A stretch of 64,000 nucleotides of DNA, from assembly GCA_905178155.1 (NCBI GenBank), contig CAJINV010000002.1:146354-210353 (forward strand). The letters run 5' to 3'. Below the pieces are notes generated by a model. That model made no database searches and had not been told where the DNA came from. It worked only from the letters and a program-made list of their open reading frames with translations. Made by a program: the position numbers and the translations under genes. Shown here in pieces: positions 1,631 to 64,000 of this stretch; within the stretch, counting starts at the first letter, position 1, and every line of letters begins with the position of its first letter. The stretch is from Amoebophrya sp. A120. Its lineage: Eukaryota > Protista > Dinoflagellata.

Positions 1631-1681
1631 ACGCTGCTAGAATATAGTCGTGCAAGTAAGAACTAGACCTGCAACCTATGC

Positions 1682-1769
1682 TATCCACCAGTTCCACATT
1701 GTAACAATGCATTTACGATATTCCCGTATCCACCAGTTCCAAAATTATCATGCATTTACGATATGCCCG
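1682..1769 (+). repeat. Tandem ~45-bp duplication
   Basis: TATCCACCAGTTCCA...ATGCATTTACGATAT.CCCG occurs twice in tandem. Confidence 0.75.
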
Positions 1770-6739: not shown

Positions 6740-6761
6740 TTAAATATATTTTTACTTTGCC

Positions 6762-8836: not shown

Positions 8837-9586
8837 AGTACCGAGCATTTATTTTTCCCGTAGATCATGACCGCGCGAAAAAGTTGCAGAATACGGACAT
8901 ACATGACCGCGCGGAAAGTAGAGCGTAGTAGCAATTTTTTACTAGTAGTCGCACAGCAGTATGTTCACTTTGTATTGTCACTCACGTCGAAGTCGACTTC
9001 CATGCGATGCAAATGCATTCCATTCTTGGAGACCCATGTGGTCTAGACGGATTTATTGTTCCTTGTGGACCACGAGGCAGTACGAATACATTCGAAGAAG
9101 GTTGATAATATGAAAAGCAAAAGGGTCGTACAAATAGGCTACGTTAGCGTTTCTACATTTTTTTGTTGTGCAAATAGGGAGGTCGAGGACCACAGAAAAC
9201 TGCGATCATGCATATTGTTCTTTTTTCCAAATAATTTGAAAATCATATGTTTTTCCGTTCTGATGAATCTTTTTATTCGATCGTTGTCTTATCGCAAAAA
9301 CGAAATTAATAGAAATACCAGAGACTAGAGTGTTCTGGTGGCATGATTGCGACTGTAAATACTTCTAGCAGTTGTACTAGAAGCGACTTTCTTATACAGT
9401 GAAAATATTTGATCCAGTGTGTGTACTTACGTAACCTACGGCATCGCAAAAAGGCCGTATATACATATAGGGCGCAAACGAAATTTTAAAAATCATTTCT
9501 TCCGATAAAAAAAGCAAACGCAAACCTCAGAATTAGGCCGCTACGTGTCATTGCTGTTCTTTTTCCTTGATACTAGCAAAGGAAGC

Positions 9587-12500
9587 CTACGTGGTGGCAG
9601 CTCCGTTCGTCTCTTCTATCTTCTTCCTCTTTCTGTTCGCGAGCAGGTCCAGAAATGCCTGTGCTGGCTTGTTATGAAATGCAAATATGTCTGGGTCTGG
9701 AAGAGTCGGAGCTTGTCTTGCACATTTTGCATGACCTGTGAGGTCTGTGATGCTGGTGCTAGCATCACAGATTTTTTGAGAGCTTTTTGATGCTAATTTA
9801 TTACGCATGAGAAATGCCCTCTCCTCGTGCCAAAAACTGATGCCTCTTGCTGCTCATGCAACACAGATTTTTTTCGAATCCGCAGACAGCATTACAAGTT
9901 CCAATCTTCCAAACCCAGACACATTTGCAATGCATACTTGTCCCGTGGCTGGGGCGAAGGAGCAGGTTTTTATGGCGTTCTCAACTGTTACATTCTGAAG
10001 TGTTACATGAATTTGTGATGCAAGAATGGCAAAAGTGAAAGGCGTGACCGTCCGCGTCTTGCATGACAGATTTGGCGCACGACATTTTCAGCCTGTTTGG
10101 CATTTCGCGAATTTGTTATGCGAAGCAGCTTGATCGTGTCGGCTCTGATGGTAATTCTGCATGACAAACCATGTAACAGCTGAGAATGTAACATTTGAGA
10201 ACGCCATAGTTTTTGTCTTCGTCGAGATGAAGGAGTGGATGGGATTTCATTTTTATCAAAGAAAAAAAGTTCGTCACGATCACTCATGCGCATTCTTGCA
10301 ATACAAAATTGTTTGTCATGCGTAAAAATGCATCACAGCCAAACTTCATTAGGGATTTCCCTAGTGTTTCTGCAATAGTTTGTGATGCTGAGAAAATTTG
10401 TAAGTTGTAATGCAAAACCTGCAAGTTAGTGACTGTGACAAACTTTTTTCTCTCCATAATTTTCGGCATCAACTACCCCGATAGAAGAAGAAGAGGGACA
10501 AATAATGACGCCAGCACCGCCATTGCGACTCCGCTCCTTCGCCGGTCGTTGTACTGGTTCTTCATCCTGTTTTATTTTTGTTTTTCCTTGTTTAATACAA
10601 GAACTCAGGGAGGACGAGTAGAAATACGGCGACGGGACGAGCTGCTGCTGTTGAGAGATCAGCGTTTGATCTTCTTCTTCCCGTAGGTGTAGTACGTTCT
10701 GGTCGGGTTCGGATTCGTCCTCCTCCTTGTCGGGAGTACTAATAGAACACGGTGGAAAGAACTGTTTCATCCCTTGCACCCTGCGTTGTTCAACATTTCC
10801 TGCTCCCGCTGAAGAATTGTGAGAATGATCTGGAGCATATCGTGTGCAAAAGTATCGTACTCGTATTGCAGTGAAGTGATGCATTACAAATCTTTTTCTT
10901 ATAGGTGAATCTGAATCCGCGCCATTTTCTCATGCTGAGGAAATTTGTAAATGCATTTATACGAGTACGACACTTTTGCAGTGCATAGACCAGAACTACT
11001 CGAGCCTACTTCAGTGGTGGACGTTCGGCTTTTTCCTGCCGCCGGTGCCTCCGCTGTTGTACTAGGGTGCAGCTCTTTATGGTGTTCTCAAACGTTACAT
11101 TCTCAACTGTTACATGAGTCTGTAATGCAAGAATGGCAAAAGCCAAAGGGGGAAGATTGCAAAAATTGCATTACAAATCCCACCCAGATTTAGGTGGTGT
11201 TTAGCTCTTCGCAAATTTGTCATGCGAAGCAGCTTGATCTTGTGGATGATGATGGTAGTTTTGCATGACAAATTCATGTAACAGTTGAGAATGTAACGTT
11301 TGAGAACTCCATACTCTTTATTTTCGACGTCTTCATGTTCATCCGATGCTGCAACTACCGGATCATCTTCCGGATGGGCTTCTTCTTCTTCTTCTCCTCC
11401 ACTCGCATCTTTGACTACGACTGCCTCAACGTCGACGGTCCGATGAGGAAGTAGAGGAGCGCGGCCTTGTTCATCCGTTCTCGCTTTGATAGAAGCGCCT
11501 TTCGCTGCTACAGCATTAGCGTTACGAAACTCCTCTAGGCTGCTCACGTCGGGCAGGGGGACCAGGGGGTGCTTTTTGTTTCGACGTCCCTGATGAATCT
11601 GGGAAATTATTTCCCTGAAATCTGCTTGACTTTCATCTGCTTCGCCTTGACCTGGAGAAGTAGATGAAGAGTGCAAATTTGGATTTTGGTTTTCGTGTTC
11701 CACCGCCGTTTATGCACTGCAAAAGTGTCTGGGTCTGGAAGGTTGGAACTTGTCATGCTAAATCTGAATCACGCAAAAATCTGTGTTGCATGATTATCAA
11801 ATGCTGTCCACTTTTGATCAAGTTGAGAGGCAGTTTCTCGCGCAGGATAGTTATGATAGTGATCTCACGGAATCTGTCATGCTAGGTCCTCCATTACAGA
11901 TCATATGGGTCATGGAAAACCTGCATGACAAGTCGAGCAAAGTTCCACACCCAGACATTTTTGCGTTTGATACCATTCGAGAAGCCAAATCTTTGTCGTG
12001 GAGGTCGTGGCGGTATCCTGTGCAGAAGTATCGTACTAGTACAAATGCTAATGCAAGTCTTGCATTACAAATCTTGTTTCCAAGGCAAATCTGCATTACA
12101 TTCAAATTTTATTTTTTATGCTGAGCAAATTTGTAATGCATTTATACGAGTACGATGCTTTTGCAATGCATAGGCGGCGGCCCTCATCGTCCTCAAAATC
12201 GGAGGACATGTCATCACGAGAATTTCCACCAGAGTTCTGGTCCTCTTCACTGTCGCTCTCAGAGAGGACTACAGAGTGGTCTTCAGCATCGGAGGACCCA
12301 GCTTGTTCGTCCGAGTTAATATTCTTGTTCTCTTCATCACAGGGTGTTGTGGCACAATTGCCCAAAGATCTTCCATGTTGAGAGGACGCAAGAGCAGCTT
12401 GTGCTTGTTTCCCTAGTTGCATTTTTCCCATGCTTACTGCTTTCTTCTTCCGATACTGTACTTCTTCAATGGCTAATTCCTGCAAAATTCGCTGCACTCG

Positions 12501-15500
12501 TCGCTGTTGCTCTAAGTCGTCCTCTTCTTGATTCTCCGCGGTGAGCCAGGTGGTTTTGAGATCTAGCACCTTGAGGACCTTGGTACTACTAGTAGGTGTA
12601 GCAGGAGGGCTCTTCAAAATGATCCTGCTGTCGTCCTCGGTCTCTTTTTCTTGGCGATTCTCTTGATCATCTTTCATGACAACAGAATTCTGTTTTTCAC
12701 CCACATGATAACCCTCGTCTCTATCACTTCCAGCGCTGTATGGAGATTTTTCTTCCACCCCCGCGAGTTCTTCGCAAGCAGCTACCGGTTCTTCGCAAGA
12801 GTCGTCCCCCTGCTGCTGATCCAGTAGTAGTAGTGGACCCCCGCCACAACTTCTGCGGTCGTCATCTCTCGCCACAAGAATCGACGGCGCGACTGTAGTC
12901 GTGGTGGCCGTCGTGGTGTCGTCGTGTGCCTCATGTACTACAGACCCGCCAACAAGTTCTTGCTCGTTATCGCCATTTGCTGGTCCTCGTCTCGTGCTGG
13001 TGCGATTTATTTTATCGCCAGGTAACAGAACTACAGCACCACAACGCCGTCGATGCATCTTCCGCTGTTCTTGCAGGAGCTCAGTTTTCAAAAGCTTTTC
13101 CTCAGCGGCTTTATCTCCCTTCAGCTTGTAGACATCGTTCTGGTCGTCGTGGTCCTCGTAGTGACGACCTCGTACTCCCGCACGCGAAGATGACGAAAAT
13201 ACCCCCGCGGCCGCATGGGCATCAGGGTGCTGGTCAACAAGAAGTATCAACTGTAAAAATGTCTGGGTCTGGAAGAATTCATGTTTGTCATGCGTATCTG
13301 ACATGACTCTTAAATCTGTCATGCACGTTACCCAAGAGCTCCGCTTTTCTGTGATGTAGAAGCGCAGTTTGTCATGCAGAATAGGCAAGAACACCTAGGA
13401 GCTCAGAAACTTGTCATGCTGAGCCAGCATTTATAGCCTCATCATGAGACGCCACCCAGCATCACAAGTTTCCAGACCCAGACATTTTTGCATTTGATAA
13501 GAAAACCCTCGTCTGCCGCGACGGAAGAATTCATCCAAGTGAGTATGACCTGCTCAAACGTTACAATCTCAAACGTTACATATAGAATCTGGAAGTGGAT
13601 CTGTGATGCAAGAAATGCATGATCTAGCTGACTCTCATAGAAGGACTGCGCATGACAAGTTCCGGAGTCGCCCCCAACCGCACTACGATCTGGCGACATT
13701 TGTATTGGAGAAGGTGGAACGGTCTGCGAGTCTGTCATGCTCGTGATGCAAGACAAATGATCCCAGATTCCATTGTAACGTTTGAGATTGTAACACCTGA
13801 GCGGGTTATAGTGAGCATCTTTTTCTTTTTCACCCGTTCCCACAAAATCTCCATCTTCAGTCGCTTCTTGTATTCCTCGGCTGTCATGACAAGCTGCGGG
13901 ATTTTCTTGCTATAATTTCCGATCGACACCTCAAACGAATCGACAATCTGCTTCCGCGCCACACTCGCGACATAAGCCTGCGACTCCTTCTCCGTGGCGC
14001 AGTGCCACTGCTGGGAAAGCCAGTTCAGCATGTTGGCGTATTCTTGGTACAGAGACTTGCTGTATCAAATGCAAAAATGTCGGGGTCTGGAAGGTGACCA
14101 GGTTTGTCATGCATATCTTGCATGGATCACGATATCTGTAAATGCATGATCTAGCATCACATATTTTTAGAGGCCTTCCTGATGCCTATTCCGCATGACA
14201 AATGCCCTCCCCTCGCAGCACAATTTGGGCTCCTATTGCTGGTCATGCAATACAGATCTTTTTAGCATCCAAAGTTAGCATCACAAGTCCCGACCTTCCA
14301 GACCCAGACATTTTTACACTTGATATGCTGAGCGGCTTGAATAAACTCGACTGAGTAGGCGACGTTGTTTCTGTTTTTCGAAGGTCGCAGCTGGTAGTTC
14401 TAGCTTTATACCGCGACCACTTCTCCCGCCAGTGCTGCCACCTCCGCTCCAACGCTGCTCTGCGATCGGTTAGAGGGAGCTTCAGAAGCGCAAAAATTTC
14501 TTTTCCCGTGCAGAAGAGCGGGTGGCCGGGGCGTGTAGTAGTTCTGCTAGAACTACTAGAAGTAGTAGTGTCGTGGTACATAGAAACCGTCTGCTCTTCT
14601 TTCTTCTCCAAAGCCGGGCTTTCCTGAAAAAAATCTCGCCCTCGTAGAAGCTCCTGTGTACTATGGCGTAGTCGTCTCGCACCCTCTCCAGCGCCCAGCT
14701 GACGTTCTGGTTCAATCTCCTCGTCAGAATAGCACGGCGAGCCACGATCACCTCCAAACCTCTCAATCAGTTTCCGCCGCAGGTAGTCTTGTCGGTTCTC
14801 GAAATATGGTAATTTTGTGCTATCATTCTTACTCCTGTTAACATCATTCCTCGTTTTCCGCTCCTCCTCGACAAAGTGCAGGGAAAAGGCCGCGTTTTCG
14901 ACATCGAATACCTGTGGCGGGAACGGCGTAGGGAGGTGGAGGATCAATTGTTGCAGCACCTGCTCGGGCGAAGCGAGGTCGGGGTGGGGCAGCCGCAGGT
15001 GGAGGTTCATCATCTCTCGGGGATCCGGTCTGGTGCTCTTTCCGTAGGAGCTGTTAGCAATACGCGCATGACGTGGTCTACTTGGCGGATCATCTTCACG
15101 TGGAGGTCCTCTTTGCTGCAATATCAAATGCAACTATGTCTGGGTCTGGAACTTTGCTAGACTTGTCATGCAGGTTTTCCATGACCCATATGATCTATAA
15201 TGGAGGACCTAGCATGACAGATTCCGTGAGATCACTATCATGCCTTTCCTGCATGAGAAAGTGCCTCTCAACTTGATCAAAAGTAGCCAGCATTTGCAAA
15301 TCATGCAACACAGATTTTTGCATGATTCAGATTTAGCATGACAAGTTCCAACCTTCCAGACCCAGACACTTTTGCGATCCATATGCAAAAATTCTTGGTC
15401 GTCCGCGGCGTCGTCGTCGTCTTCTTCAGAGGAGACATTGCTGTCGGTTCGGTCTTCGGAGTCACTGCAGTATTGAACTCGGCGGAGTTCATCATCTTGG

Positions 15501-18500
15501 CGCTTTTCAACATCCGCATGGAGGTCTACTTGGGGTTCTTTTCCATCTTGCTGTTCTATTTTCACCAAGGTCGTCGTGGCAGAAATTCGTGCTGGTGTTC
15601 CTCCAAACGGATCATACACTTTCTGCTCCGCTCTCTTCTCGACCAAATCCTATGCATTGCAAAAGTATCGTACTAGTAGTAATCGCATTACAAATTAGCT
15701 CCGCATGACAAAATGGAATTTGTAATGCTGTTTTACCTTGAGATAAAAATTTGTATTGCATTACTGCGATTACTACGAGTACGATACTTTTGCACAGGAT
15801 AAATCCGCATCTTCAACAAATTCCTCAAACAAAAACATTTCCGCAAAACCTTCCACCATTCTCTCGACCTGCTGCCGATCCCGCATGCGACGGTAAAAGT
15901 TGAAGCGGGTAAAAGGGTCTGTTCCTGCTGATTTATCATTTCCCCGACTGATACCTTGGCGAAGAAGGCTCAGCGGGTTATTTTCTTTTTCGACGAAAAT
16001 TGGTTCTTGTTCCGCGGAAAGCATTTTTTTCTGCTTTTCCCTGATTTCTCGGGTAGATCGATAGGCGAGATTGGAGATGTACAGCTTCATATCCAAGAAA
16101 AAAACTGTGTTAGTGTAACTTTCCTTGGGTGACAACATTTGCTCTACATGACAAAAAAAACCTGTCATGTGTGGTTTGTAAGGGAAAACACGCATGAAAA
16201 GAGGACTTGATGGCTGTCTGGCATGACAGACGTGCCTCTGTTGCATGTTCTGCATTACAGAGTTACACTTACACAGTTTTTTTGTTGCATACTTCACAGC
16301 CTTCCAAACTCTCCGCTTCAAGTGCTTGCAATTGATTATCCTGTGAAAAAGTATCGTGATCGTAGTAATTGCAATCATGCATTTACAAATCTTTTTCTTA
16401 AGGTAAATCCGCATTACAAATTTTATTTCTCATGCTAAGAAAATTTGTAATACATTTATACGAGGAGGATACTTTTGCATTTGATATTGATCTGATCCAG
16501 ACACTTGAGTCGCCCTGTTTTATTGTTTGGCGACGGTGGTTTTGGTTTTCGTTTTCGACGTTTTCTCGACAGTTGTTTTTTGTTCCGAAGGGGTTTTTTC
16601 TTTCGTGCTGCTTTCGACATCCTGTTCGCTTTTTTGTTCGCCTTCTTCTTTTCCTTGCTTTGCCGCTCTTGTTGTGATGCTTTGTTGCGTTTCTCCCTGC
16701 GATCAGATGAAGTAGTGGTGGTTTTGGCAAAAGACCTGAGTAACCTGGCTGCGCAAGCCGAGCCACGAGTTGATGAGAACAAGTGCTTCCGCAACAAAAC
16801 CGCCTGCTGCGCGTGACAGTCGATCGTTTTAATCCGGCCTGCATGCTTGGCCAGCCGCGTCGCGTACTTTGAACCGGGCGGGGCAATGCAGCTGATCAAA
16901 CTGAGCCCGGCCCTCCGTCGATTCGCGATGGAGAGTCCCGCGGGCGTGCAGATTCGCGGAAGAAAGATTCGGGAGCAGCCGAAGAAAAGGTGGACGATGG
17001 TGCGGAAATCCAGCGCGGCTGATCTTCGTGTCGTCGCAATCTTCCCGTGGGTGGAGGAAGAAGAAGAGTTCTTTGCACGACCTTCAACTTCTTCATCTTC
17101 AACGTCGAGCCGGGAGTGTGTATCCGTATCCTTCTCTTTCTCGTGGTTCCCAACATCTTCTTTTCTTCTCCTTTGCCTCCTCGTCGGCGCCCACGCCCTG
17201 CTGTCATCTTCTTATCAACCGCAAAAATGTAAATGTCTGGGTCTGGAAGATTGCCATGTTTGTCATGCAGATGTTCTATGGCTCATAAGGTTTAGAATGC
17301 AGCTCCTAGCATGACAAATTCTGTGAGATCTCTATCATGCCTTACCTGAATGAGAAACTCCCTCTCAACTTGATAAAAAAAGACGGCTGTTGGTAATCAC
17401 GCAACACAGATTTTTTGCATGATTCAGATTTAGCATGACGAGTTGCAACCTTGTAGACATCCAGGGATATTTGCATTTCATAAATCTAGCATGTGTTCGA
17501 TTTTCTCGGAGAACCCCGTGTATTCGAAAATGTCGACCCTTTTCGGTTCGAAGTCATCCGGCAAAAGTTTTATCCCACGAAAAAACTGTTTCACTGTGAT
17601 GATTTTGCAAGATCTGCATCACAAGTTTGTTACACATGACACAGAAAATTTGCCATGCGCCCTTCCAAAGGGAAAACACCCCTAAAGAGTCAAGGTCTTG
17701 CAGGTGTAGCAAGACAAATAGTTCTGTGCTCCATTCTATGCATCACAAGTTCACAGTGAAACACCAGTTTTTTCTTGCGATAAGCTTCTCCTTCAAGTGA
17801 ATCCGACTTTGAAGAAACTCGAGCTCTTGCAGCAGGAAGAAAGCCACGTCCTCATCACTTCGGTCAAACTGCGTATTTTGCAAGATATCCCGCCTTTTCA
17901 GCTTCAGCTTGTCAATTTGCCGGCGCAGCCTGCAAGTTTCGGGCGCGAGTTTGTAGAGTTTCCTCGTGACCGCTTGCAGTTGCTTTTCGCAAAGGTCCTG
18001 ACACTGCTTGATTTGTCGGCGCAGTGAGAGTATGGAATGTAAAAATGTCTGGGTCTGGAAGAATGGAACTTGTCATGCTGTTTTTGGACTCTAACAAAAT
18101 TTGTATTGCATGACCAGCAAGGGGGGTACAGTTTTTCTTTTTACTACACGGACAGGGCGCTTTTCATGCGGAAGGTGCATCAGGAAGCCCTCTAAAAGTC
18201 TGCGATGCTAGGTCATGCATTACAGGCATCATGGGTCATGAAAAATATGCATGACAAATCTTGCATTCTTCCCGACCCAGACATTTTTGCATTTGATAGA
18301 AAGGGGGAGGCCGATTTTCCGGTTCCTCTGGGTTTTTTTCTTGAGGCAGGACAGCAATACATTGCGGCCGTGCGCTGGTGGTACTTCTTCCTCCCTTTGC
18401 ACCTTGTCTAATTCCCTTTTCCAATCGGTCTTGATCTTTTTGCACATTTTCTTCCTCCACTTTTCGGTTACTTTATCCAATGCCGCTTGAATGGCTTGTA

Positions 18501-21500
18501 CTTCTTGTCGAATTTTCGTCGCCAGAGCAAAATGCTTCTCCTCTTCGTCCTGTAAACGAATTTTCGTGTACTCCTGACGGTCCATGAGGACACTCGGGTC
18601 CTTCTTGACAAGTCGTGCCTCGGAGTTGTTTGTGATAAGCAGCTCGGGGTTCTCCACCGCCTCGGGCATGACCACAATCGTGCCCGGAACAAAAATCGTT
18701 CTCTTTTGTACCGCCGTCTGCGAAAAGTCAATCCGCTCAAAAGCCGCGAGGGACAGGTCGGGTTCTTCGAAAGCTTCCGTGAGGGTCGTAACTGGTTGAT
18801 GTTGACCATGTCTTTCTGTCTGCAGTCCTCCTCCAGTGCTGCTCGCGTTCAGGTTCATCAAAGCAGAAGCAGTTGTACTAGTATTACCGCTGTCATTCAA
18901 TTTCGTCGTTTTCAGCAACTCCAACTCCTTCTGATCCTGACGATACAGACTCACTTCCGAGACGGAAAACAACTCCTGTTTCACGTTACCCGCGAATGCT
19001 TTTTCGTGCTGCCTGAGAAACTGTTGAAGGCAGGGCGTCTGGCGCGCTGCGGATACGCTGCTGTTCCCATTCTGTGCTCCTCTGATGGTAGTTTCGCTAT
19101 TCATTTCCAAAGCAATGGAACTGGACGATGGAGCGAAAGAACCTCCTTCAAGAGGAGCAGGCTGTTCTTTCAACATCAACAGGCTGGAAAAATCTGCGCG
19201 CAGCTTCCTTTCCCATTGGAAGCATGCGCTCGTGTAGGCGGTGCTAGTGCCTCTATCAGTGAGGGCGAGGAAGTTGATGTTTCTGTTTGCGTTGTTCATT
19301 GTCATTCCGATTCCCAGTTCTCCCACGATTCCGCGCAGTTGTGGTGCCACCGCGGTTAGGACCAACCGCTTTTCCATATCAAAAGGAAAAATCCCCCCTC
19401 CCCATATCAAAACGGAATTCTGTGATGCAGATTTGTTGTCACAAATCAGCTTTGTCATGCTACACGGGAAAAGATGTAGACACTGTAGTGCTGGGTGGCG
19501 TGGGAATAAACCTTTGCGTCTTCAACATAACAGAAAACAACTAAAAGTGGGAAACAGCATGACAAATTGCCTGCAAACGAGACCACGACTGCGGCTCTTG
19601 GCCTTCTAGCATGACAAGTCGATTTGGTACCTCAAATCCTGCATCACAGATTTCCATTTCGATATGGGGATTTTTCCGTTTGATATTCCAAATTAGCGAT
19701 CAGTTTCTCTAGGAATTTCTGCGCTTCCTCCCGAAAATAGACGTTGCTGTAATCCATATCCTGAGTAAAAACGTACCCACACCAGAGTCAGGATGGGAAT
19801 TTTGCAACACAAACCTAGGAGCTTTGTGAGTCACGCATGACAAGTTGCGCTCTGCAGTGTAGGGCAGGTTAGCAAGTGCAGCCGCATCACAGATTCATCA
19901 GCTCATCCTGTTCACAGCATCACAAATTCCAAAACACATCTGAAAATGGCTCTCATGGGGATGCGCATTACAAGTCTTCCTGTCTTTGCAAATCTGCATT
20001 ACAACTCTGGTGTGGGTACGTTTTTACTCAGGATAATCCAGCCTGCTCAACATCTTTCCGGTCTTCGCTTCGCCATCTCCTGCGCTGGTCGCAATTCTTC
20101 TCGCGCGCACTCGATTTTCAAACACGGCCGGGAGAACCGCGAAAGGAGGCAGCTGAAACTCTTCTTGTGCCGCATGCAGTAGATCCACTGATGTATTACT
20201 ACCCTCTAGTACTTCCTCCAATGGGTTCCACGCCGCGGCCCCCGCCGATTGGAGGTTTAGCAGCATTCGGTTGTCGTTCTCTTTGTCTAATTCCTGCTCT
20301 TCTTCATAAAACTCCACATCCGAATCGCTATCGTCCCCCTTCGGCTGATACGCCTTCAAGAAATGCTGCTCGATTTTCAACAGCCGGATCTGCTCGAAAA
20401 GGTACTGAATGAATTTGGCCCTTCTTTCTTCATGAAATACATTCTTCGCGTACTCGTCGACGCAGGAGTGGAGGAAATTTTCGTAGGAAGCATGAGAACT
20501 GCTACTGTAACGGGAGAGTTTATGGTCTTGATCTCCTCCTGCATCGCTGTTTTTCGTACTATCCCGCATGACAAGTTTCATCTCCGCCTCCTGCCGACAA
20601 TAAAGCTCCTTTTGTTTCCGAAGAACCGCCCGGAAAAACTCCTGCTCTTCAACAGACGAGCAGGCTTCGTCGATATCATTCTCCCTGTGAAGAGCTGCAC
20701 GACGTGCAGAAAGAACAGTGTCGCACTGCAGCAGAACCCCCTGCATGAAACGCGCTCCGAGGTCCTCGCTTAGGTTTTGTCGGATTTTCCGCTCTTCTCT
20801 GTTCAGCCGCTCGAACCCTGCGTCAGAAATACTTTGCCCCGGTTTTTTGTTTTTCACACCTCCGAAAAACGCCTTCGGAATCTTATGCACAGCAAAAGTA
20901 TCTATCGTACTCGTATAAATGCATTACAAATTTTCTCAGCATGAGAAATAAAATTTGTACTGCTGATTTGCCTTAAGAGAGAGATTTGTATTTGTAATGC
21001 ATGATTGCAATATTAGCTACGAGTACGATACTTTTGCACAGCATAAATCTCGTCCCACATCTGCCATCGTCGGAAGTACGCGCCCATCAACTGTGAAAAT
21101 GTCTGGGTCTGGAAGATTGGCAGCTTTGTCATGCATATTTTGCATGACCCGTGAACTCTGTAATGCATGCACGAGCATCACAGATTTTTAGAGGGCTTCC
21201 TAATGCCTATTCCGCATGAGAAAGCCCATCTCCGTGTAGCCCAAATTGCTTGGAGTTCTCTTGCAGGTCACGCAATACAATTTTTTTTTGAATCCAGAGA
21301 CAGCATCACAAGTTTAGAATCTTCCAGACCCCGACATTTTTGCATTTGATAGCACCTAATTTTGCCTTGATGCTCTTCTCAAGTGTGTACTGTTTTTTCA
21401 GCGACCCCTCAAACCGCAGCAGCATCTCATCCCTCCGCTTCTCGAGCTCTTTTTCGTCTTTCTTCGAAATTTTCTTCTTGAAAACGGTCGTTCCTTGGAT

Positions 21501-24500
21501 TGGGCCCGGGATGATGTTGTAGGAAGAATGTTGAGAATCGTGATTCTGGGATGACATCAAATCCAGATGCTCGTTGAAACATTTGTCCGTCTTGCAGATG
21601 AACGTGTTCCAAAACTCGTCGTAATCGAGCGCAAATTGAACGTATTCGTTTTCAAACTTTTCCCAATCATCGGTGACGATCGCGACAGAGGTGTCGAAAT
21701 AGCCTCCATCTGGTTCGACGTACTCGGCTTCTTCAAGGGCCGCAAGTGATGAATTTGAATTCGGTTGTCGAAAAATATTGAACGCGGTCCGGATTTTCTT
21801 CAGAAGCCTGGCGGTGGTTATTTGCCGGTCGTACGGTCGTCTTGGAGGTTGTAGATGATGTAGTAGCCGAGGATTTAGTTGTGGGTCGACGTTTTGGAGA
21901 TGACCTTGATGTTGCACTGGGGCGGCCACGACTGGGACAACCACTGGCCGCGTTCGTTTGCCTTTGCTGCTCTCTGTCCTACGCGACAAGCGCTCTCGTC
22001 TTCGCCCGGCAACGCAGCTCCGAGCGCAACCACTCGAGCTCCTGCTCCTGCTGCCAGTGTCTGCTCCTCTGGGCGGCTGCGATAATGTCTTTTCTTCCGA
22101 CAACTCGTCGATCCACTGCGACTCCTGGTAGTCCCTCTTCCGGTCAGAGCAGTCGACTTGGTCTGCAAAATCTTGATGTCCCTCCAGCTGCCACGACTCC
22201 TCCTCCATGGAAAAGCTGGAGCTAGTACGCGCGTGTTCATCAGAAAAATCCCCCTCGTCGTCACTATCCGGCACGACCGGAAGCTGCAGAATTTCGCAGA
22301 GCTCCTCTTCCCCGGAGCAAAACCCAGCGATTTCCCATAACGGAAGTGGCTCATTGTCGCGCTTTAAGGATCTTAATGCTGTTTTATACCGGAATTCCGC
22401 AAACGCCGACGGGTCGAAGTCGGTAAAAGTTGCATCGTCCTCAGCACTAGGAGCTGCACCGGTATCCTTCGCGTGCTGTGTGTCATCTATTCTGTCGGGA
22501 GATGATGATGCCACAGCAATGGCTGTGTGCTGCGACTCTTGTTCTTCTTGTCCAAGAACATCGTAGTCATTTGATGCAGCCACGCCGCCATGCTCGTCGT
22601 GTCCCTCTCCTGCCTCCTCTAGAACAAGAACCTCTTGTTGCTCTGTGTCCTCGACAAGTACCCACGAGGACCCTTTTTCGTCTACCACCTGTTCCAGTGC
22701 GAGCTGTTGGAGAAATTCTCTGTGCGTCTGCGGCATGACAGACTTGTCCCTCTCTTCCATGGTATTCGCTTTTTTCAAGTTATGAGAGTGCACAACTTCC
22801 CCGCCCCCTCGTTTGTCATGCAATTAGCCAAATCCAGGCTCTGCCTCTTGGCACTGTTTGCATGACAAGTTCTGGCTGTAGCCCAAATAGCACTACACTT
22901 CAGTGTAAATTTGTCATGCAAGGCCGGCATTCTTGCTGATGCTTGTATTGCCGTTCATGCTATACAAATGAGGGGGAGGGAAAGATGTGCACTGTCATAC
23001 AAGTCGGGTACGTACGTCAGCCACTGGTCGTACAGAATGGGGTGTTTAAACGTGCCGCCGTCTTCCGCCTCGACGCGGACGGGAAGGCGGGGTGGAATGG
23101 TGTTCTGATCCTCGTCTCGATCTTCAGAGAAGAGATCATGATCATCTGAAAGCGAATCGGAGTCCTCGTGTTGTTCCGGTAGTCGTGCTCTACCTTGTAG
23201 TGGAATATCATCATCATCTTCCTCTTCCAGGCTCTCTGTCTCACTGTCCTCCTCCAAGAGCGCAGGTTCGTTGCCAGCAGATAATTGCAGTGGTGATGTC
23301 CTCTCGTCTGCGCAATCCTTTTCGCCATCAGTGTAGTCCCTGTTTGCCGGTGGCTGATGTAGTTCCTCGTCGCTCTCGCTTGCACTATCCTGTTCTCCTT
23401 CCGGGCCAACTACATGGATCAGGTCTGCCTCATTCACAAGCAAAGAAGTAGGGGAACCAGCAGTAGGAGGCTGGTGTACTTCTCCCGTTCTTCCAATTAC
23501 ACAACCGGTCGTGTCACCCTCACCTCCAGCTACACGACCTGTGTTCAGGAAAATAAATCGGGTGCTACTTTGTAAGTAGATCCCACTGACACCAATCACT
23601 TCTCCACCGACGGGGGCAACCACACACCACGATCTTGATCGACGGTTTATTTTCTGTTTCGTTGATGGCTCTTCCTGTGAATTCAAGTCCAATTCTTGTG
23701 TCGTCACCCCACCACGGATGAGCGATGGCCTAATCCTACCGGTGCTGCAAGAGCGACTTCGTTTCTGCTCTGTGCGAGGAATCGTAGACGTCCGCCTTGG
23801 CGCAGGAACGCGAAGTGCCTCGACCTTCGCTTCGCTCTTTGCTGTGTCCTCGTAGTTGAGGGCAAACTTCTTTGCTTTATTTCGGCCTCCATCCGATTCC
23901 TCGCCATCCTCCTTATCTGAACTAGAACTGCAACTCCACTCGGACGGAAGCTCCTCTGTATCAGCGGTTTCCTCTTCGTCTTGTTGGCCCTCCGAACAAT
24001 GATCTTCGGCAACTACAGAAGGGGACGAAGTTTGATTTCCCTTGGATGTTGATGCCGCTGGGCCATTCACATCAGATAAAGTTTGCGAACCAGTTTTACC
24101 TTCTTGCACCGACGGCGGCGTCCTCCTAGGTTCTACTTCTGAACCAAGCGGGTCCTCTTTAATATACCCGCAATGTTTCACCAAAAGCCTTGTCCACCTC
24201 TGTCTCTCTGGTTCGGACTCGATGGCCGCTAAATTTTGCGTTACGACTCTTCGTTTCTCGTCGTCCTGCGGAAGGAGTTCGCGCCAAAGGGGAAGCGGGG
24301 CTATTTTCGGTGCTGAGCCATTGAAATCCGAAAAATCGGAGGAGTCGTCACTGTCGGAGGAAGTAGAGAAAATAACACTGCTGGTAGAGGAATGCGATGG
24401 CCTCCTGCGCCTGGAAGAGGCGGAAGCCCCCTCTACTGACGCGGGCGGTTTCTCAGTCTTTTGACTTTGTCGTTGGGGCGGAGGAGGTTTGTTTTCCCGA

Positions 24501-42056: not shown

Positions 42057-42188
42057 ACCTAAGATTCGGTCTCATACACAAATTATACACACAACTCCCC
42101 GCAACACATAATTTGAAACTAAACCACACGAGGTACGACCACCAAACTAAAAATGTCTGTGTGCTCGTGCTGCTCGAGCGCGACTTCA

Positions 42189-46000: not shown

Positions 46001-46250
46001 ACCAAGCACCCCTACCGGTGACGGCTTTCAATAATCTCCCCCACTTCCTTGAGCAGCTCCTCGACATTAGCTGTGCATTCAAAAACTAGTATGCGAAGAT
46101 GGTGGTGCCACATAACAGTGCACGAAGCACATCTGTAGCACAACAAGATCGGGTTTTTATTCCTGTGCCCGGCATGCAGAAGACGTTGCCAACTGGGATT
46201 ATACGCGCATCACAAACTCCACAAATAAAGGTGATGTAGTACCAACAGCT

Positions 46251-49200: not shown

Positions 49201-52200
49201 GCGCCTAGGCCAAAACCTTTCTACTCAGGCTTGGCAGGAGCCTGCAGTCCTCTACTGCAAGACAAACCTGATTTGTATACGCAAATCCAGCATCAGAAAC
49301 TTCCGTTTGATATGGGGAGGGGGGATTTTTCCTTGTGATATCTGATGTAAATTCCGCATTTTACTGTTCGTCACGACCTGCTGTTGCAGCAACAGCAAAC
49401 CCCGCATCGGTGGCACGCCCGGCGTTTTCGATTCATCAAACACCGCTTCCGACCGGATCTTCTTTGTCGCATACAAGGCTCTCTTCTGCAACTTCTGCAG
49501 CAACAGCTTCGCGAGTTCCAGAAACGCGGGAGAGCTTGTATGGGATTCTCAAGCGTTACACTCTCAGCTGTTACATGATTTGTCATGCAAAAGCACAATC
49601 AGAATTGACACGATCAAGCTGCTTCGCATGGCAAATTTTCGAAGCCGCGCCAAACAGGCTGACTATCCGTGCCATCAAACCTGTAATGCAAAAGGCGCAA
49701 TCATCTTTATTTTCCCTTTCAGATTCAGTTTTGCTATTCTTGCATTACAAGTTCACGCACGACTACTAGTTGAGAATGTAACATTTGAGAACGCCATAGC
49801 TTGTGTGGGACCCGTGCTCGGAGATGGTCTGGACTGGGTCCTTATCCTGTGCAAAAGCATGATGCTTTTGCATGATTGTAATACGAGTGCGATGCTTTAA
49901 GCATCGCACTCGTATTACAATCATGCATTACAAATCTTTTTCTTCACCCCAATCAGCATCACAAATTTTATTTCTCATGCTGAGGAAATTTGTAATGCAT
50001 TTATACAAGTATCGGATACTTTTGCAGCTCATAGTCCTTGGTAAATTCCTTCTCGACGTTCGATAGGTAATTTCTGTCTTGCTTTTTCCGGCTCTTCTCC
50101 CTCTGTTTTTGTTTTTCATACTCCAAGACCTCCTTCCCTCTCGTCCTTTGCTGCTCCTTCTCGTGCGCGATAGACAGCATGGCTGCGGCTTTCCCCATCT
50201 GCTCCTTCATCGAGGAATCTGTCATCAAAGCCTGCCATTGGGAGACGATGTCGTAGTAGCCCTCGACCTGTTCCACCTCGGAAAGTTCTTCGCATATCCT
50301 GAGTAAAAACGTCCCCACACCAGAGTTCAGTTGTCGTGCAAATGCGCAATGACAGGAACATTCGTAATGCGCAGCTCCATCATGAGAGGCATTTCCAATC
50401 GTGTTTTGGAATCTGTAATGCTGTAAACAGGATGCGAAAGTGGCTTTCTCATGCGGCTTCTCTTGCCAATCAGCACTACCCTGCAGAGGGAAACTTGTCA
50501 TGCACAGCTCCCAAAACTTGGAGACTTGTGTTGCTAGATTCCCAACTTGACTGTGGGGTGGGGACGTTTTTACAAATGATATCACACAGCCTGTTCCGCA
50601 TGTCGTCGATCTGTTCAAACAAGTTCTCGAGCTTCACTTTCGCGGTCTCGTAGAGCAGCGTTTTTTTCGTGGCGGTGTCAAGTTTCGGCTGGTTTTTATT
50701 GTCTGCGTCTTTGTTCTGCTTGCTTGTTTTCCCTCTGGTGGCAGTCGTTCCTGGTCTACTCTTCATCGGGGATGAGGAAGTTGATTTTGGCGAACCGGGT
50801 CGAGAGGAAGACTTCGCTCCTTCTTTTCCTGTTTTTGGCGACCCGCTCGTCGGTGACTCATCCCCACCGGAACCAGACATTTCCGCTATCTCCTTCAACA
50901 TGTCCGGAGGAATCATTTCACTCGTTTGCTCCACGAAGTTGTCGTCCCCAGACAGTAAATACGGTAGGCAAAACGCGTCACTAGGTGCGGTACACGATTC
51001 CCAGTTTAGCAGCGGCTATGAATTGCAGAAGTATCCTCGTACTCGTATAAATGCATTACAAATTTCCTCAGCCTGAGAGATAAAATTTGTAATGCTGATT
51101 TGCCTTCAGAGACAGATTTGTGATGCATGATCGCAATACGAGTACGATACTTTTGCACAGGATAGCGGCTTCGCGTTCACAATCTCGCCCGACTCATCCA
51201 CCCGTGTTTCCGTAACCATGCGGTTTTTCACGACGCAGTTCCGCACCACATCGATGTTCGCGTGGTGTCGTATTTAAAAACGCCCCCGCCCCACAGTTGT
51301 AATGCAAATCTGCATGCTGAAAATGCTTCTCATGCGGAGCAGCCCCATGACAGGCAGCATCTCGCCACGTTTTGGAATTTGTCATGCTCCAATCAGCATG
51401 ATGCACTAGATCTGTGATGCTGCTGAACTACCTCAAACAGTACGACGCTACGAGTTCAATTTTGTCATGCAAAACAGCCAAAACTTGTGGACTTGTCTAG
51501 CCGATTCCCCATCTTGACTCTGGGGTGGGGTCGTCTTTACGTAGGATACGTGCGCCAAAATCGTGATGTTTTCCTTAATCGAAATTTCGTTATCAAATGC
51601 AAATATGTCTGGGTCTGGAAGGTTGGAACTTGTCATGCTGTTTTTGTACTCTAAAAAAATTTGTATTGCATGACCAGCAATAAAAGGGGCACAATTTGTG
51701 CTACACGGACAGGGCATTTCTCATGCGGAAGGTGCATCAGGAAGCCCTCTAAGAGTCTGCGATGCTAGGTCATGCATTACAGACATCATCCATTTCCATG
51801 GGTCATGAGAAATATGCATGACAAATCTTGCACTTTTCCAGACCCAGACATTTTTGCATTTGATATTCGTACAAATTCTCCAACTCTTTTCTCAACCACG
51901 GTTTGATACACCCATCGAACAAATGAGTCAAAATTTGCCGGACGAAGTTGGTTGAAACTTGGACATGGAATCTCGTTTTCAGCAACTCTTCGCCCGTTTT
52001 TAGCAGTATCACGTTGTTGGTCCGATGAGGTTATGCATTGCAAATATCCCTGGATGTCTTGAAGAATGAAAGATTTGCCATGCAGGTTTTCCATGACCAC
52101 CCTTGACCTCTGGAATGCAGCACCTAGCATGACAGATGCTGTGAGATTTCTACCATGCCTATCCTGCATGAGACACTCCATGCCAACCTGGTCAGAAGTG

Positions 52201-55200
52201 GACATCGTTTGGTACTCATGCAACACAGATTTTGGCATGATACAGACTGAGCATGACAAGTTGCAACATCCTTCGTCCAGACCCAGATATATTTGCACGG
52301 CATAGGAGCTTCAACAGCGAGTCGTACTCCTTCGCCTTCCTCGCTTTGTCCTCGATGAGAGTTTCGAGCTGCAGCATTTTCCGGATCCCTTTTTCCATTT
52401 TCTCCGTGAAAATCTTCTCGGCGTTTTTCACATCCACTCATCCTCAGGAAAAACGTCACCACCCCAGAGGTGTCATGCCAATATGCATGCTTCAAATGTT
52501 TTTCATGCGGAGCCCCATGAGAAGCATTTTCTAGTGGTGTTTTGGAATTTGTGATGCACGAATCAGCATGATAGGGTAGATCTGTGATGCTGCTTCACTA
52601 GCTAAACAGGATTACAGTAGAAGGCCAAACTTGTCATGCGAAACAGCCACAGCTGGTTGATTTGTGTAGCAGATTCCCCATGGTGACTCTGGGGTGGGGA
52701 TGTTTTTACACAGGATACCACTTTCATCTGGTTCAGTTCCTGTTTCAACAATTGGCACTGCTCTGTGGTAAAAGCCAGCATCGCTTCCCGCTTTTTCCTG
52801 CTGAAGACGCCGGTTTGAAAATCAACTCTTTCCTCCAATTTCACCACGTGCTGCTTGTGCTGATCGAGCAAAAAAGTCGCACGGTCTAGGCTGTGTTGCA
52901 AGTTGTAATGGTCCTCTTCTTTCTTCATCAACTGCTGCCGCAACTCATCCTGTGCAAACGTATCGCACTCGTAGTAATTATCGCAGTCATGCATTACAAA
53001 TCTCCATCCCAAGGCGAAACAGCATGACAAATTCCATTTGTCATGCTGAGCTAATTTGTAATTTGTATTGCAATTACTACTAGTACGATAGATATTTTTG
53101 CAGTGCATACAACTCGTGGTTTTCCAACCGGATGTCGTCCGCTATATTCCCCGATTCCCGTTTTGACTTCTCGTTGATCAATTTCGAATGTGAATTGCAA
53201 AAGTATCGTACCCATAGTGATTGCAGTCATGCACTACAAATCTCTCTCTTAAGGTAAAGCCGCATTACAGATTTTATTTCTCATGCGGAGAAAATTTGTA
53301 TTGCAATTACTACTAGTACGTTACTTTTGCAGTGCATATCGAATGCGTCAAAACCTTCTCGTAATTCAGCTTCTGCGCATCCAGCATCGTGTCTGCTTCG
53401 TAGCTATCAAATGCAAATATGTCTGGGTTTGGAAAGGTTGAACCTGTATTGCGTGTCTTGCATTCGTGAAAAATCTGTGTTGCGCATAAGCAGCAAAAGT
53501 GCCACTCTATCGTGATGAAACATCGCAGTTTGTAATGCGCACTACGCATTAGAAAGCGTTCGAGAGATTTGTCATGCGTCGCTGCACTTAAAAGCGCACT
53601 CAATCATGACCATTCAGCATCACAGGGTTCCAGACCCAGACATATTTGCAATGCATAGTAGCGGTGCTTGTTCTCGATCTGCTCGACTTTTCGCGTGTGC
53701 TCCTTCCGCTCGTCGTTGATGATGGTCCGGAGTTTTTCCAGCAGTAAGTAGGATTCTTTCAGCCGCTTGAAAACGGAGTCGTTCTCGCTTTCTAAGCGCT
53801 TATTTTCTTCAAACAGCTCCTGTTTCTTCTGGTCGGAGTGCTGTAGTTTCTGCCGAAACAAGTCCGCTTCCTCTTCTTTCTCGTTGACTTTTTTCACGAG
53901 TTTGTTCCGCTCCTCCGCGTTTTTGAAGGAGAGAAACTGCATCTGTTGCTGTAAGTCCGCTTCGTTGGACCTCGCCTGCTCCAAAAGTTTTACCTCCTGG
54001 TTTTGCTGGTCCTGAAAAATTATGAACTGCAAAAGTATCGTACTAGTATAGATGGCATGACAAATTTCCTCAGCATGACAAATGCAATTTGTCATGCTGA
54101 TTTGCCTTGGGGACGATATTTGTAATGCAAGCATGACTGCAATTACTACAAGTACGATACTTATACTTTTGCACAGGATAAAAATCTGTTTCTTCAAGTC
54201 GTTAATTTCGTCTTTCTGCTCCTGTTTCCGTTTTTCCTCTTTATGCATTGCAAAAGTATCGCACTAGAACTACTAGATGAAATCGCATGACAGACCTTAG
54301 CACTACAAATGAAATTTATTATGCAGATTTACCCTTACGAAACAAGATTTGCAATGCATGATTGCAGTATAGTACGAGTACGATACTTTTGCAAAAATGC
54401 GTACTCTTCTTCCTTCCCTAACTCCTTCTGCTCCAAAACTTGACGGTACTTGGTGCGCAGCTTGTGACACTGATAAAGGATTCTGATTCAGTTTCGTCAA
54501 TGCAGAAAAACCTATCACAAAAGGACTTTGTCATGCATAAAATCACATCACGAAAGAAAAGGCTAAACCACGGCACCGCGATATTAAACCGAATAAAGCT
54601 GCAAAAACTATACCTTCGCCTTGTAATTTCCCACGTCGTTCTCGTACCGCTCTGACAGGGCATCAATCTTCTCCCCCAGCACCGCGTACTGCCGTCTCAT
54701 CGTCTGTCGTTCCTGTTCACTCTCTTGCAGCGCGTTTCGGAGCATCGCAATTTCCCTTGCATGATTGGTATGATTCATGCTGTTGATGTTCCTGGTCGAG
54801 GAGCTTGCTGTTGATGTGTGGGGGTTATTTCTGTTATTCCGGCTTCCTCGGTGTAAACGGAGAAGCTCGGCCGCGGTATTAGGCGAGGTTGACCCACCAC
54901 CGACAGGGTAGTTTTTGCCGTTCTGATATGATCCTGCATTTGTTCTGCTCCCAACAGCCCCACCAGTACTCGCATCCAGCATTCCAAATTTCGTTCGCAA
55001 CCGGTCCAAATTCGTCGTATCGAGGGAAGGCGCAGTAGTACTTGTGGCGAACAACAAATTTTGGCCAGTTCCTTCTCGAGCTCCGCTCCTGTTCTGCATG
55101 ACAGATTTGGAGCTGGTGTGATCCGGTTTGTGTTTACTCTGTCTTGCTGAGGAGGAGGAAGAAGAAGCGGAAGTTCCGACCACCAGTGTCGGAATCACGG

Positions 55201-58700: not shown

Positions 58701-58921
58701 AATTTGGTACTCTTGCACGTTGCCCTAGGCTGCGGATTACATACACGACGGTAGTGGCTTATCTTGACAATTCGACTTGCCAGGAAACACGAATGTTGTG
58801 ACTGCCCGGCTCACCTTTCTTGTCAAGAAAGTGCCTCTTTGGAAAAGTGCAATTTCTGCAAAATTACGGATTCATCTGCCATTGTGCTGTACTGTCGTTG
58901 TTGATGGTTACTTCGGCAGAT

Positions 58922-58975
58922 AAGAAATCGCTGCTACGCTAGGTCGCAAGAAATCGCTGCTACGCTAGGTCGCAA
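58922..58975. repeat. 26-bp tandem duplication
   Basis: AAGAAATCGCTGCTACGCTAGGTCGC twice. Confidence 0.9.
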
Positions 58976-61516: not shown

Positions 61517-64000
61517 TCAGTTTCGATTTAAATTTTGCGCGGCTTCACCGCTAGCCCTACTCGCAGCCCCACCGCCGCTGTTGTTGGAACTTCGATGGTT
61601 GTCTTGTTCATTCGGGCCCGACGCGTTGGTAGAGGAAGAAGAGCTACTACTGCTACTACTCGCCGTACTTTCCTTCGCAAACCGTTCTTGCGCTTTCTGC
61701 ACCTGTGCCATCTGCTCCTCTAATCTTCTATCTCGCGCCAACACCCGCGGCTCTACCCGGAGATTGGGAAAACGTGGATAGGCTGGTGCTTGGGCGTAAT
61801 TGTTTCGTTGGTCGTTGATCATGTCGTTGAAAGAATTTGAATTGATGCCCGAAGACGACGCCGTCGATGAAGAGCCAGCGGGCTGCACTCGGGTGGTCGT
61901 GCTTGTCATGATGGAACAATTGGGCGGCCCGTTACAGTTACCTCTATTGCGACCTCCCCTGAACGGGGGAATTTCCGGTAAGTTTGTTCCGTATTTCGCA
62001 TGCAAGATTGCTGCCTGACTCAGAGGACCAGCACTAGCTGAGGACGAATTCTGTCGCGGTTCTTGCGGTCTTGATCTTTGTGTTTCTGAGGAGGTGCTGT
62101 TGTTTCCATTTTTACTGCAGTTATTTGTAGTTCCTGCTGTTTGTAGTTGACCAGCAACAGAAGTACAAGTAGAGGAGGAAGATGAAGCTGCTCCTGCTGC
62201 AGCGTTTCTGCTGTTTCCTGTTGAAGGGCCTCCAACAACCCCAGGGGATGAGAGAACTACTGCAGGGGCGTTCGCGTTGTTCGCCAGCACGACGTTACTA
62301 GCATTCGGATTCGCCGGTCGCGGCGGCTGCGCCATAGAACTCCCCGCCGGGAGAGCTGTTGCGGCCGTAGGAGCTCCCCGTGTCGTTGTACTACCCGCCG
62401 GTCGTGTAGTAGGCGCCGCAGTTGTAGTAGAGATCATCGGCCGGGGGTACACAGATGAGGGTAAAGCACCACTGTTGCTTATCCTGAGTAAAAACGTACC
62501 CACACCAGAGTCAAGATGGGGACTTTGCAACAGAAGCCTAGAACTTTTGGGGGTCACGCATCACAAATTGCAGTCCGTAGTGTAGTGCAGGTTCGCAAGG
62601 CCAGCTGCATCAGAAATCGATCTGCTCATCCTGTTTACAGCATTACAAATTCCAAAACACGACTAAAAATGCCTCTCCTGGCGATGCGCATTACAAATGT
62701 TCCTGTCATTGCAAATCTGCATGACAACTCTGGTGTGGGTAGGTTTTTGCTCAGGATATTGCTCGACGTAACAGGACCACGAGTAACAACACCCGTGTTA
62801 CAACTTCCCGTCAACGAGGAAAGGCTAGTACTTCCTGGGGGGCCGAAGATACTGGTGTTCGGGAAAGTGGTCTTGCTCAAGGGAGCAAAGATGTTGCAGC
62901 TCACGGGAGCAGGAGCCGCGGCGGCAGTGCCAGCGCCGGTTGATGTCGACGTCCTGGAAGTAGCAGTAGACGCAGCTGCTGCTGCAGTAACAGAAGTTGT
63001 ACCGAGATTATTGGCCGGCCTTCTACTTACGTTCCGCGAACAAGAAGTCCTATTCGACGGCGACCGGGCGGGAGACCGGTCCAGGGCAGACCCCGGGGCG
63101 TAATTCGGGCTGTCGAAATAGGTGGCGAGCTTTTGCGAGGGAGGCTGGGGGGCTTGAACTTGGGGCCCGGAGGCGGAGGCGGTGGTCCTGGTGTCAACAA
63201 CAACAGGATTTGTGGCAATATTGTTGTTCGCTGTTGCCGTGGATGTGCTGGAAGAAGGTGCGGGGGCCACGACGGCTGCTGCTTCATCTGTAGTGGGTGG
63301 TCGTGCAGGATGGGGAACAGTAGTGTCGTGCCCACCTTCGTCATTCGGGGCTGTTTCAGTGGTGTTCGAGCTCGTCGCTGTATTTGCGCTTGCCTCGTTC
63401 ATCGCGGTAGAGGGAGCGGAAGCTGTCTGTCGTGATGCTGTACTATTCGAGTCAACTAGTACATTTGTGGCATCATCATCTACCTTCGCAGCAGAAGACG
63501 CTGCAGGACCTCCTGCAGCACTAGCTGTCGCGACGTCAGCACAACTTCTTGCCCCGGTTTTGGCCTCAGTTGTGGAGGACGTGATCGCGTCTGGTTGAGA
63601 AGTTCTAACCGAAAATGGTCCAGCACTATTCACGCCCGGGGGAGGAGTATCAAATGTAAAAATGTCTGGGTCTGGAAGATTCTGAGATTTGTCATGCATG
63701 TTTTGCATGACCCAGGATGTCTGTAATGCACGGCCGCGCATCACAGATTTTGAGAGGGCTTCCTGATGCCTACTCCGCATGGCAAACGCCCTCCCCGCGT
63801 AGCACAAACTAGACTCCTCTTGCTGGTAATGCAATACAGATTTTTCTAGAGTCCAAAGTTACCATCACAAGTTCCAATCTTCCAGACCCAGACACTTTTA
63901 CATTTGATAAGGAGCCGCACTGAACAACTCTCTCGTAGAAATCGTCGTGTCTATGTTCATATGCATTGCAAAAGTATCGTATTCGTATAAATGCATTACA
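61517..64000 (-). CDS. 3' part of an Ala/Ser/Thr/Pro-rich low-complexity protein (continues beyond the window)
   Basis: ORFs 62635-63834 and 61517-62557 join in frame after introner removal (VTSS^NSGAL); stop TGA at 61517. Confidence 0.8.
62480..62758. mobile_element. Introner family C
   Basis: DR TTGCT/TTGCT; frame restored. Confidence 0.92.
63648..63909. mobile_element. Introner family B
   Basis: DR AGGAG/AGGAG; frame compatible. Confidence 0.9.
63960..64000. mobile_element. Introner family A, left part only (cut by window edge)
   Basis: TATGCATTGCAAAAGTATCGTATTCGTATAAATGCATTACA. Confidence 0.85.

Follow-up and report, generated by a model that had tools for sequence, protein, structure and literature searches.

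Introners of the Amoebophrya A120 window

The DNA analysed here, referred to as the window, comprises 64,000 nucleotides (nt) of the dinoflagellate Amoebophrya sp. A120 (assembly GCA_905178155.1, contig CAJINV010000002.1, positions 146,354 to 210,353 of the forward strand) and carries two long genes filled with introners, short transposon-like elements that are at the same time introns. A preliminary description of the window proposed that a 9-bp motif, GCATNACAR, recurs inside every introner family despite unrelated terminal inverted repeats (TIRs), and that a single trans-acting factor recognizes all of them. In A120, Farhat et al. 2021 described 29,850 introners of 1,954 families, the spreading and splicing of which were left open (PMC7789003). 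The elements of the window agree with these published introners in their end signature, and the sole close relative of a window protein is from Amoebophrya sp. A120 (86%).

Cataloguing of elements that begin with TAT and end with ATA yielded 69 complete copies, 49 of which are flanked by a perfect 5-bp direct repeat and none by a 6-bp repeat; the target-site duplication (TSD) shows no base preference. Having TIRs, a fixed TSD, a short non-coding interior and many copies at unrelated sites, these elements qualify as MITEs (miniature inverted-repeat transposable elements), that is, non-autonomous TIR DNA transposons. The host genes and representative elements are the following (introners are given without strand; sites are GCATNACAR sites):

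9590..38442, minus strand: host gene with 44 introners; removal of each element plus 5 nt leaves one frame of 6,234 amino acids (aa)
46254..54487, minus strand: second host gene with 19 introners; 1,313-aa frame after removal
21085..21351: class A introner (24 window copies); outward sites centred 46 and 78 from the left end, others at 95, 134 and 223
11078..11313: class B introner (6 copies); alternating sites at 47, 95, 144 and 190; exact splicing
31280..31429: class C introner (23 copies, about 150 bp); inward sites at 47 and 78, opposite sites at 94 and 112
19757..20035: class D introner, 279 bp, 5-bp TSD; six same-direction sites, antisense on the transcript; fold z −6.9
52439..52717: class D introner inserted the other way round (its sites are sense on the transcript), within the restored minus-strand frame
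22781..22999: class E introner; sites at 37, 84, 135 and 167
10254..10458: class F introner; exact splicing
16090..16291: class G introner; interior homologous to class J (17571-17782)
19377..19685: class H introner; 32-bp tandem pairs placed symmetrically at the two ends (48/80 and 237/269)
40492..40796: class I introner; sites at 46, 147, 179, 212 and 260

To the window we added 168 loci of one other assembly, none of which overlaps the window genes; all genome-scale figures below refer to the window plus these loci. They were fetched by a scan with the class A end pattern, so that class A is over-represented and its TIR conservation is biased upward. They contributed 378 additional elements, including 11 TIR classes (28 copies) that are new relative to the window. 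Over all 447 elements the end logo reads T95 A100 T100 S94, followed by A at 72–85% in positions 11–15, and is weaker in class B; the loose end frame TAT-S-N6-A-tract that the preliminary description had pointed out is thus real, yet it was already contained in Farhat et al. 2021. The description had also counted nine families with unrelated TIRs. There are ten TIR classes in the window, and because G and J are homologous inside they make nine lineages; 'unrelated' was overstated, as interior homology under different TIRs joins G, J and N2, and likewise F and N7, with weak interior similarity between D and E, B and E, and H and N5.

GCATNACAR is concentrated in introners of every window class

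Over both strands of the window GCATNACAR has 227 exact matches, compared with 5.12 expected and at most 13 in any of 100 shuffles. The 69 complete elements (15,702 bp) hold 204 of these (13.0 per kb) and five partial copies another 6, leaving 17 in the remaining 47,850 bp (0.36 per kb), a 37-fold enrichment inside elements that runs counter to an equal frequency outside them. As had been claimed, every family takes part: each of the 69 complete elements, and hence all ten window TIR classes, has at least one exact site. The central N is A in merely 2 of the 227 matches, and a matrix trained on the window approximates Y-W-G-C-A-W-B-A-S-A-R-R-Y. In the element at 19757-20035, which had served as the example, exact sites lie at 19835, 19884, 19917, 19965 and 19996 and a site with one mismatch at 19804, with spacings of 31, 49, 33, 48 and 31 bp.

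The enrichment extends to the fetched loci, where 365 of the 378 elements contain an exact site. In the 11 new TIR classes the density of matrix sites is 16.8 per kb compared with 0.28 after shuffling, 10 of the 11 having sites, and at least one matrix site was found in 445 of the 447 elements. The site density is 0.25 per kb in masked non-element DNA and 0.09 per kb in its open frames (11 sites versus 5.1 expected). Exons of the window are likewise poor in the motif, as the preliminary description had it, with 8 sites per 28,319 coding bases (0.28 per kb), though this is above the 2.3 of a synonymous shuffle. Exonic copies, for example those at window 27185-27228, thus exceed synonymous shuffles 2–3.5-fold, and some are paired; they could be exonized element remnants. 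Some class A and C ends hold a near or exact motif copy at positions 4–12 (for example, window 41548-41560), and the terminal frame may be a degenerate first motif site.

Motif positions are conserved, most strongly on internal tree branches

Conservation was measured by a split-half test, in which motif slots were set on one half of each subfamily and scored on the other. Difference rates were 0.02–0.07 at motif positions 1–4, 6 and 8 and 0.11 at positions 7 and 9, compared with 0.216 at the central N, 0.197 in the other interior and 0.076 in the TIR core. The motif core is therefore about four times better conserved than neighbouring bases while the N drifts freely, and the difference persists after CpG and base matching. 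The motif decays more slowly than its neighbours within the same elements, and this, together with the enrichment, supports one shared, selected and sequence-specific signal across TIR classes.

On trees built without the motif columns, the N column included in the exclusion, the ratio of core to interior substitutions was 0.13 on internal branches versus 0.42 on terminal branches (Fisher p 6e-20); for the N column the ratios were 0.98 and 1.07, respectively. The stronger constraint on internal branches implies that copies with damaged sites seldom left descendants. No paralogous or allelic insertion sites suitable for a test of selection after insertion were found in the window and fetched loci.

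Sites are arranged in three-turn pairs phased to the element end

In 15 of 19 lineages two sites of the same direction lie 30–33 bp apart; 20 randomizations gave a mean of 1.15 such lineages and a maximum of 3. The spacers of these pairs are near background in identity across lineages (0.35 versus 0.30 shuffled), and the smallest class, N1 (109 bp), consists of two TIRs and one such pair. The first outward-facing site is centred 36–38, 44–48 or 57–64 bp from the element end, and these distances fit a step of 10.5–11 bp, one helical turn, in 18 hand-picked lineage modes with class C left out (Rayleigh R 0.72, p<1e-3 over the period scan). Divergent pairs at 46–50 bp recur in 5 of the 19 lineages, as do convergent pairs at 32–35 bp. 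Neither one 16-bp lattice nor a global 10.5-bp period could be established for pair distances, the periodogram being broad and dominated by the 31–32 peak.

Introners almost never nest

Although 38% of the two main genes consists of elements, no more than 1 of 427 insertion sites falls within another copy, compared with the 43–81 nested insertions that 10–19% nesting would yield. Foreign inserts of several hundred bases are tolerated in elements. Between neighbouring elements (9590-38442 and 46254-54487) no exon is shorter than 21 nt and 22 of 61 measure 21–74 nt, which suggests that elements insert beside the copies already present and not within them. The lack of nesting could be explained by a motif-binding protein that occupies the elements, by nucleosome protection, as discussed for other introners in PMC9860276, or by selection against nested introns.

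Elements are removed exactly, including one without an end array

In contigs of RNA-type runs, whose RNA label is a guess and which come from one sample, 12 consecutive elements of four classes and both orientations (9673-15801) are skipped exactly, each together with 5 nt; these are 12 of the 15 joints shown. As a DNA control we used contigs that cross the junctions unjoined; the joints listed for this comparison, 15 of 37, were repeat artefacts of the DNA run. Each of the 13 joints seen to skip an element recreates the exact empty site, in contigs that drop rare variants, and one copy of the 5-bp direct repeat remains after splicing. From the raw RNA run X7, 193 reads map, 99% of them continuing into unlike sequence, and give no read-level splice data. 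Removal restores the frame for all 69 window elements. The length of element plus 5 shows no bias to multiples of three, and mismatches between TSD copies did not reveal where in the repeat the splice cut falls. Of 197 introns, 10 could have GT/GC..AG ends.

The predicted pairing probability is 0.83 for TIR positions 10–30, with weak covariation of the TIR arms in classes A (p 0.002), H (0.016) and D (0.03) and none in B, C and G.

A much larger element occupies the left part of the window:

3649..6801: TAT...ATA element of 3,153 bp with an imperfect TIR of about 60 bp and a 5-bp TSD, in a RING-finger-like gene (no strand)
5393..6739, minus strand: 449-aa reverse transcriptase (RT) frame within this element, in transcript sense, 62 nt inside the element

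Matrix sites are absent from the first 618 and the last 1,382 nt of this element, with seven sites between, and nothing in the fetched loci matches it. In two RNA-type contigs 3643 is joined exactly to 6802, and DNA contigs cross both junctions, so that in this one case the end array is unnecessary for exact splicing. Its terminal duplex is predicted at −42.9 versus −20.4 kcal/mol. The RT frame aligns only with the C-terminal part of relatives of about 900–1,000 aa, close ones being present in A120, A25 and AT5. An N-terminal GIY-YIG match was found in 8 of 15 scanned relatives, and the frame itself has neither GIY-YIG nor a Pfam match. From its sequence it is likely a 5′-truncated Penelope-like passenger of a clade that we take to be Naiad/Chlamys.

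Search for a mobilizing protein

A Pfam scan of 95 locus and 5 window frames gave no transposase or integrase, and no autonomous partner appeared among long TIR pairs or these 100 frames in about 0.5 Mb. The class A end was absent from viral contigs; four viral motif-triple matches and two end-pattern matches proved to be coding, tandem repeats or chance. Among 18 pattern matches in GTDB genomes none has TIRs and a TSD, the richest being an 8-bp microsatellite, and neither a TnsB/MuA-type gene nor a prokaryotic relative with these ends was found among the 18 GTDB and 2 viral pattern matches. One chance match, in Photobacterium (L189, 118-2942), places an RT-like frame and two neighbouring genes beside an 8-bp microsatellite; it is unrelated to the introner motif and looks retron-like by eye.

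Other observations on the elements and the window

Relative to subfamily consensus, 211 of 571 insertions in elements of the window and L005-L172 are 3 nt and 67 of 571 are 6 nt long, compared with 10 of 209 deletions of 3 nt. The insertions are mostly not exact tandem duplications, although the elements are introns. If genome-wide, such a bias toward triplet insertions could be relevant to the speed at which Amoebophrya proteins evolve. In L027 (505-1608) the right interior of a class I element is replaced by about 800 bp of GC-rich repetitive cargo. At window 38883-40168 a GC-rich tandem array of units of about 92 bp lies between two truncated class C ends (38405 and 40441) and possibly splits one class C element.

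The 6,234-aa frame of the gene at 9590-38442 is low-complexity. At 28504-28633, contigs of three RNA-type runs swap 128 nt for 26 other letters, which probably reflects a contig of another gene. Further to the left, a strong hairpin lies at 3886-3979 within the 3,153-bp element; an 86% direct repeat (715-1056 versus 8503-8837, 7.8 kb apart) flanks the RING/RT region; and window 119-440, beside a decayed class C copy, is an 88% duplicate of a large-gene exon (12176-12488). An Rfam search of window 600-9600 gave merely hairpin look-alikes below the gathering score.

GCATNACAR as a candidate binding site of a protein needed for copying

We propose that GCATNACAR is a double-stranded DNA (dsDNA) binding site of one protein, a transposase or a helper, that the non-coding elements need for copying, and assign this reading a probability of roughly 0.6. 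It draws on the enrichment, the conserved core with a free N, the 30–33-bp pair, the helical steps, the constraint on internal branches, the non-nesting and exact splicing irrespective of orientation. Of the single trans-acting factor proposed in the preliminary description, the shared selected signal stands and the data favour a dsDNA binder needed for propagation, while the factor itself did not emerge from our searches. Mechanistically, several protomers would load onto one face of the helix through the motif sites and present the TAT-N7-AAA end to an integrase-like DDE enzyme, which would insert the element with a 5-bp stagger; the motif-bound protein might also bar further insertions from elements already occupied. 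Splicing out of RNA would be distinct from this, with the terminal hairpin rather than the motif as its likely guide.

Several observations weigh against this proposal. The single copy of class N6 has no motif site, and class C, without an outward site near its ends, is an exception to the outward-first rule; it was left out of the phasing test, and the 19 lineages, some with shared interiors, are not fully independent. Motif changes are depleted also on the tips (0.42) and in the youngest copies (0.47; 21 of 1,515 versus 141 of 4,814), for which either sparse sampling (447 of some 30,000 copies) or selection acting once a copy has inserted can account. The same pattern is seen in the TIR core, which is family-specific (0.29 internal versus 0.62 tips), and one universal factor does not explain it. 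To the empty Pfam scan is added that the text of Farhat et al. 2021 reports no transposase in A120 (PMC7789003), and exact splicing without an end array was seen in one element only, in one sample with a guessed RNA label.

The main competing explanation is a host DNA-binding or chromatin protein that coats introners or phases nucleosomes and acts after insertion, in protection or in co-transcriptional recruitment of splicing, aiding copying only indirectly. We regard it as unlikely, but to be taken seriously: it too reads a dsDNA signal, it fits orientation independence and phasing as well as the constraint that persists on tips and in young copies, and no transposase is known in A120. Non-nesting and exons of 21–74 nt, moreover, resemble the linker-biased insertion described for other introners (PMC9860276). 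Against it, internal branches show a threefold stronger constraint, the values for coding context and for places where no open frame was detected are close (0.37 versus 0.43, the class being noisy), and the array-free 3.15-kb intron is spliced exactly.

The preliminary description had alternatively considered that an RNA-binding factor marks these introns for removal through the motif, or that opposite-orientation copies zip the RNA into a long stem. A role in RNA is improbable in our judgement, even though splicing is non-canonical, U1 was undetected in A120 in the published account (PMC7789003) and motif bases are predicted to be paired more often than other interior bases (0.75 versus 0.57; mean motif–motif pairing in the 69 window elements 0.43). 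This higher pairing arises because inverted copies produce pairing by themselves. Every large subfamily occurs in both orientations relative to transcription, so either strand can be the transcript; by exact sites, 37 of 197 strand-assigned introns are antisense-only, 27 sense-only and 128 both, with 5 having none. Nor do sites of both orientations occur in all families, as had been stated: the array is one-directional in 23 of 28 class D and 7 of 7 N1 copies, so that zipping by motif pairs is impossible there, and predicted motif–motif pairing in class D is 0.09. Within the outer inverted pair the two N bases are complementary in 73 of 230 cases versus 70.0 shuffled (p 0.19), which indicates no compensation. 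The array-free element, finally, is spliced exactly. The marker option is disfavoured and the zipping option unsupported.

Spread through an RNA intermediate, with the motif serving a Penelope-like RT such as that in 3649-6801, appears very improbable. The RT frame does lie in transcript sense just inside a precisely spliced TAT...ATA element and has close relatives in A120, A25 and AT5, but it is devoid of the N-terminal approximately 500 aa with GIY-YIG of its relatives, as in a 5′-truncated passenger, and its host element has no end array and is not matched by any fetched locus. DDE-type integration agrees better with a fixed 5-bp TSD, TIRs and full-length copies in either orientation. That the motif is a functionless relic of common descent, a descent that interiors shared under different TIRs make plausible, is already largely refuted and scarcely credible, given a core about fourfold more conserved than its surroundings with N free, the survival of this effect under CpG and base matching, and a spacing kept though the spacers turned over.

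Returning to the proposed copying factor, a more far-reaching version is that one generalist, possibly domesticated, mobilizer runs tens of thousands of Amoebophrya introns of many TIR classes through a 9-bp code and end-phased three-turn pairs, keeping copies apart and uncoupled from a precise, hairpin-guided and U1-independent splicing. We offer this as a tentative possibility, more doubtful than the binding site itself; if true, it would amount to a two-layer code, DNA for copying and RNA shape for removal, by which transposons fill exons at no cost. A universal, selected and spaced motif turns many families into one system, separates the needs of copying from those of splicing and provides a concrete bait for the missing A120 introner protein, making the question of this machinery directly testable. 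Non-nesting and the exact removal of a 3-kb insert bear on the bulk invasion of exons by introns.

Comparison with known systems

The elements share with the A120 introners of Farhat et al. 2021 the TAT, seven looser bases and A run, a short direct repeat, non-canonical RNA-supported introns, many families and no transposase (PMC7789003). They differ in a plain 5-bp TSD, exactly one copy of which remains after splicing, where that study gives a border repeat of 3–5 nt, and its text and supplement text report no shared internal motif, spacing rule or non-nesting (PMC7789003). The exact motif strings matched none of the papers searched, although Figures S19 and S25 of that study are images and could show the motif unremarked; the internal motif is a real code in a known element class and had apparently not been reported before. 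The A120 families of Gozashti et al. 2025 have the same sizes (about 150, 210, 260, 279, 305 and 320 bp) and, in 22 of the 58 A120 rows of their Dataset file 8, are mostly filed as TIR DNA elements with superfamily unassigned; families are treated separately there, with no cross-family motif in these rows, and family 38 contains an integrase-like frame between TIRs (PMC12130899).

IS3EU and GingerRoot elements have TA..TA termini, which are found here as well, and an integrase-like transposase is a plausible mobilizer (PMC10045372, PMC6839031). These elements usually have a 6-bp TSD and GingerRoot TIRs measure 100–150 bp (PMC10045372, PMC6839031). Of the introners, 0 of 69 have a 6-bp repeat and RNA skips the element plus 5 nt; no transposase was found for them.

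The near absence of insertion into existing copies (at most 1 of 427), for which a motif-bound protein is a putative cause, is a likeness to Tn7 and Mu, which exclude insertion into self. Both show target immunity. Against these systems, the introners have a 9-bp core of putative binding sites that fills a non-coding eukaryotic element which is itself an intron. The ends bound by TnsB of Tn7 and CRISPR-associated transposons and by MuA of Mu have in common with introners a 5-bp TSD, a short terminus and several unevenly placed sites, and differ in being prokaryotic, with 22-bp sites and the transposase gene on the element (PMC9371665).

MITE subterminal motifs are family-specific, whereas GCATNACAR is common to at least 20 TIR classes with a fixed three-turn spacing. 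Subterminal repeats bound by the mobilizing protein occur in En/Spm, through TnpA, and in hAT elements. A MITE parallel is Emigrant/Lemi1, with short internal repeats, often in both directions, that are bound cooperatively by the mobilizing protein (PMC1636448). For removal, the introners resemble SOS splicing (PMC12779559) and the nonconventional introns of euglenids (PMC11282704), in which TIR elements are removed without GT-AG, guided by pairing of the ends; SOS splicing is imprecise (PMC12779559), whereas the introner joints are exact in 13 of 13 cases.

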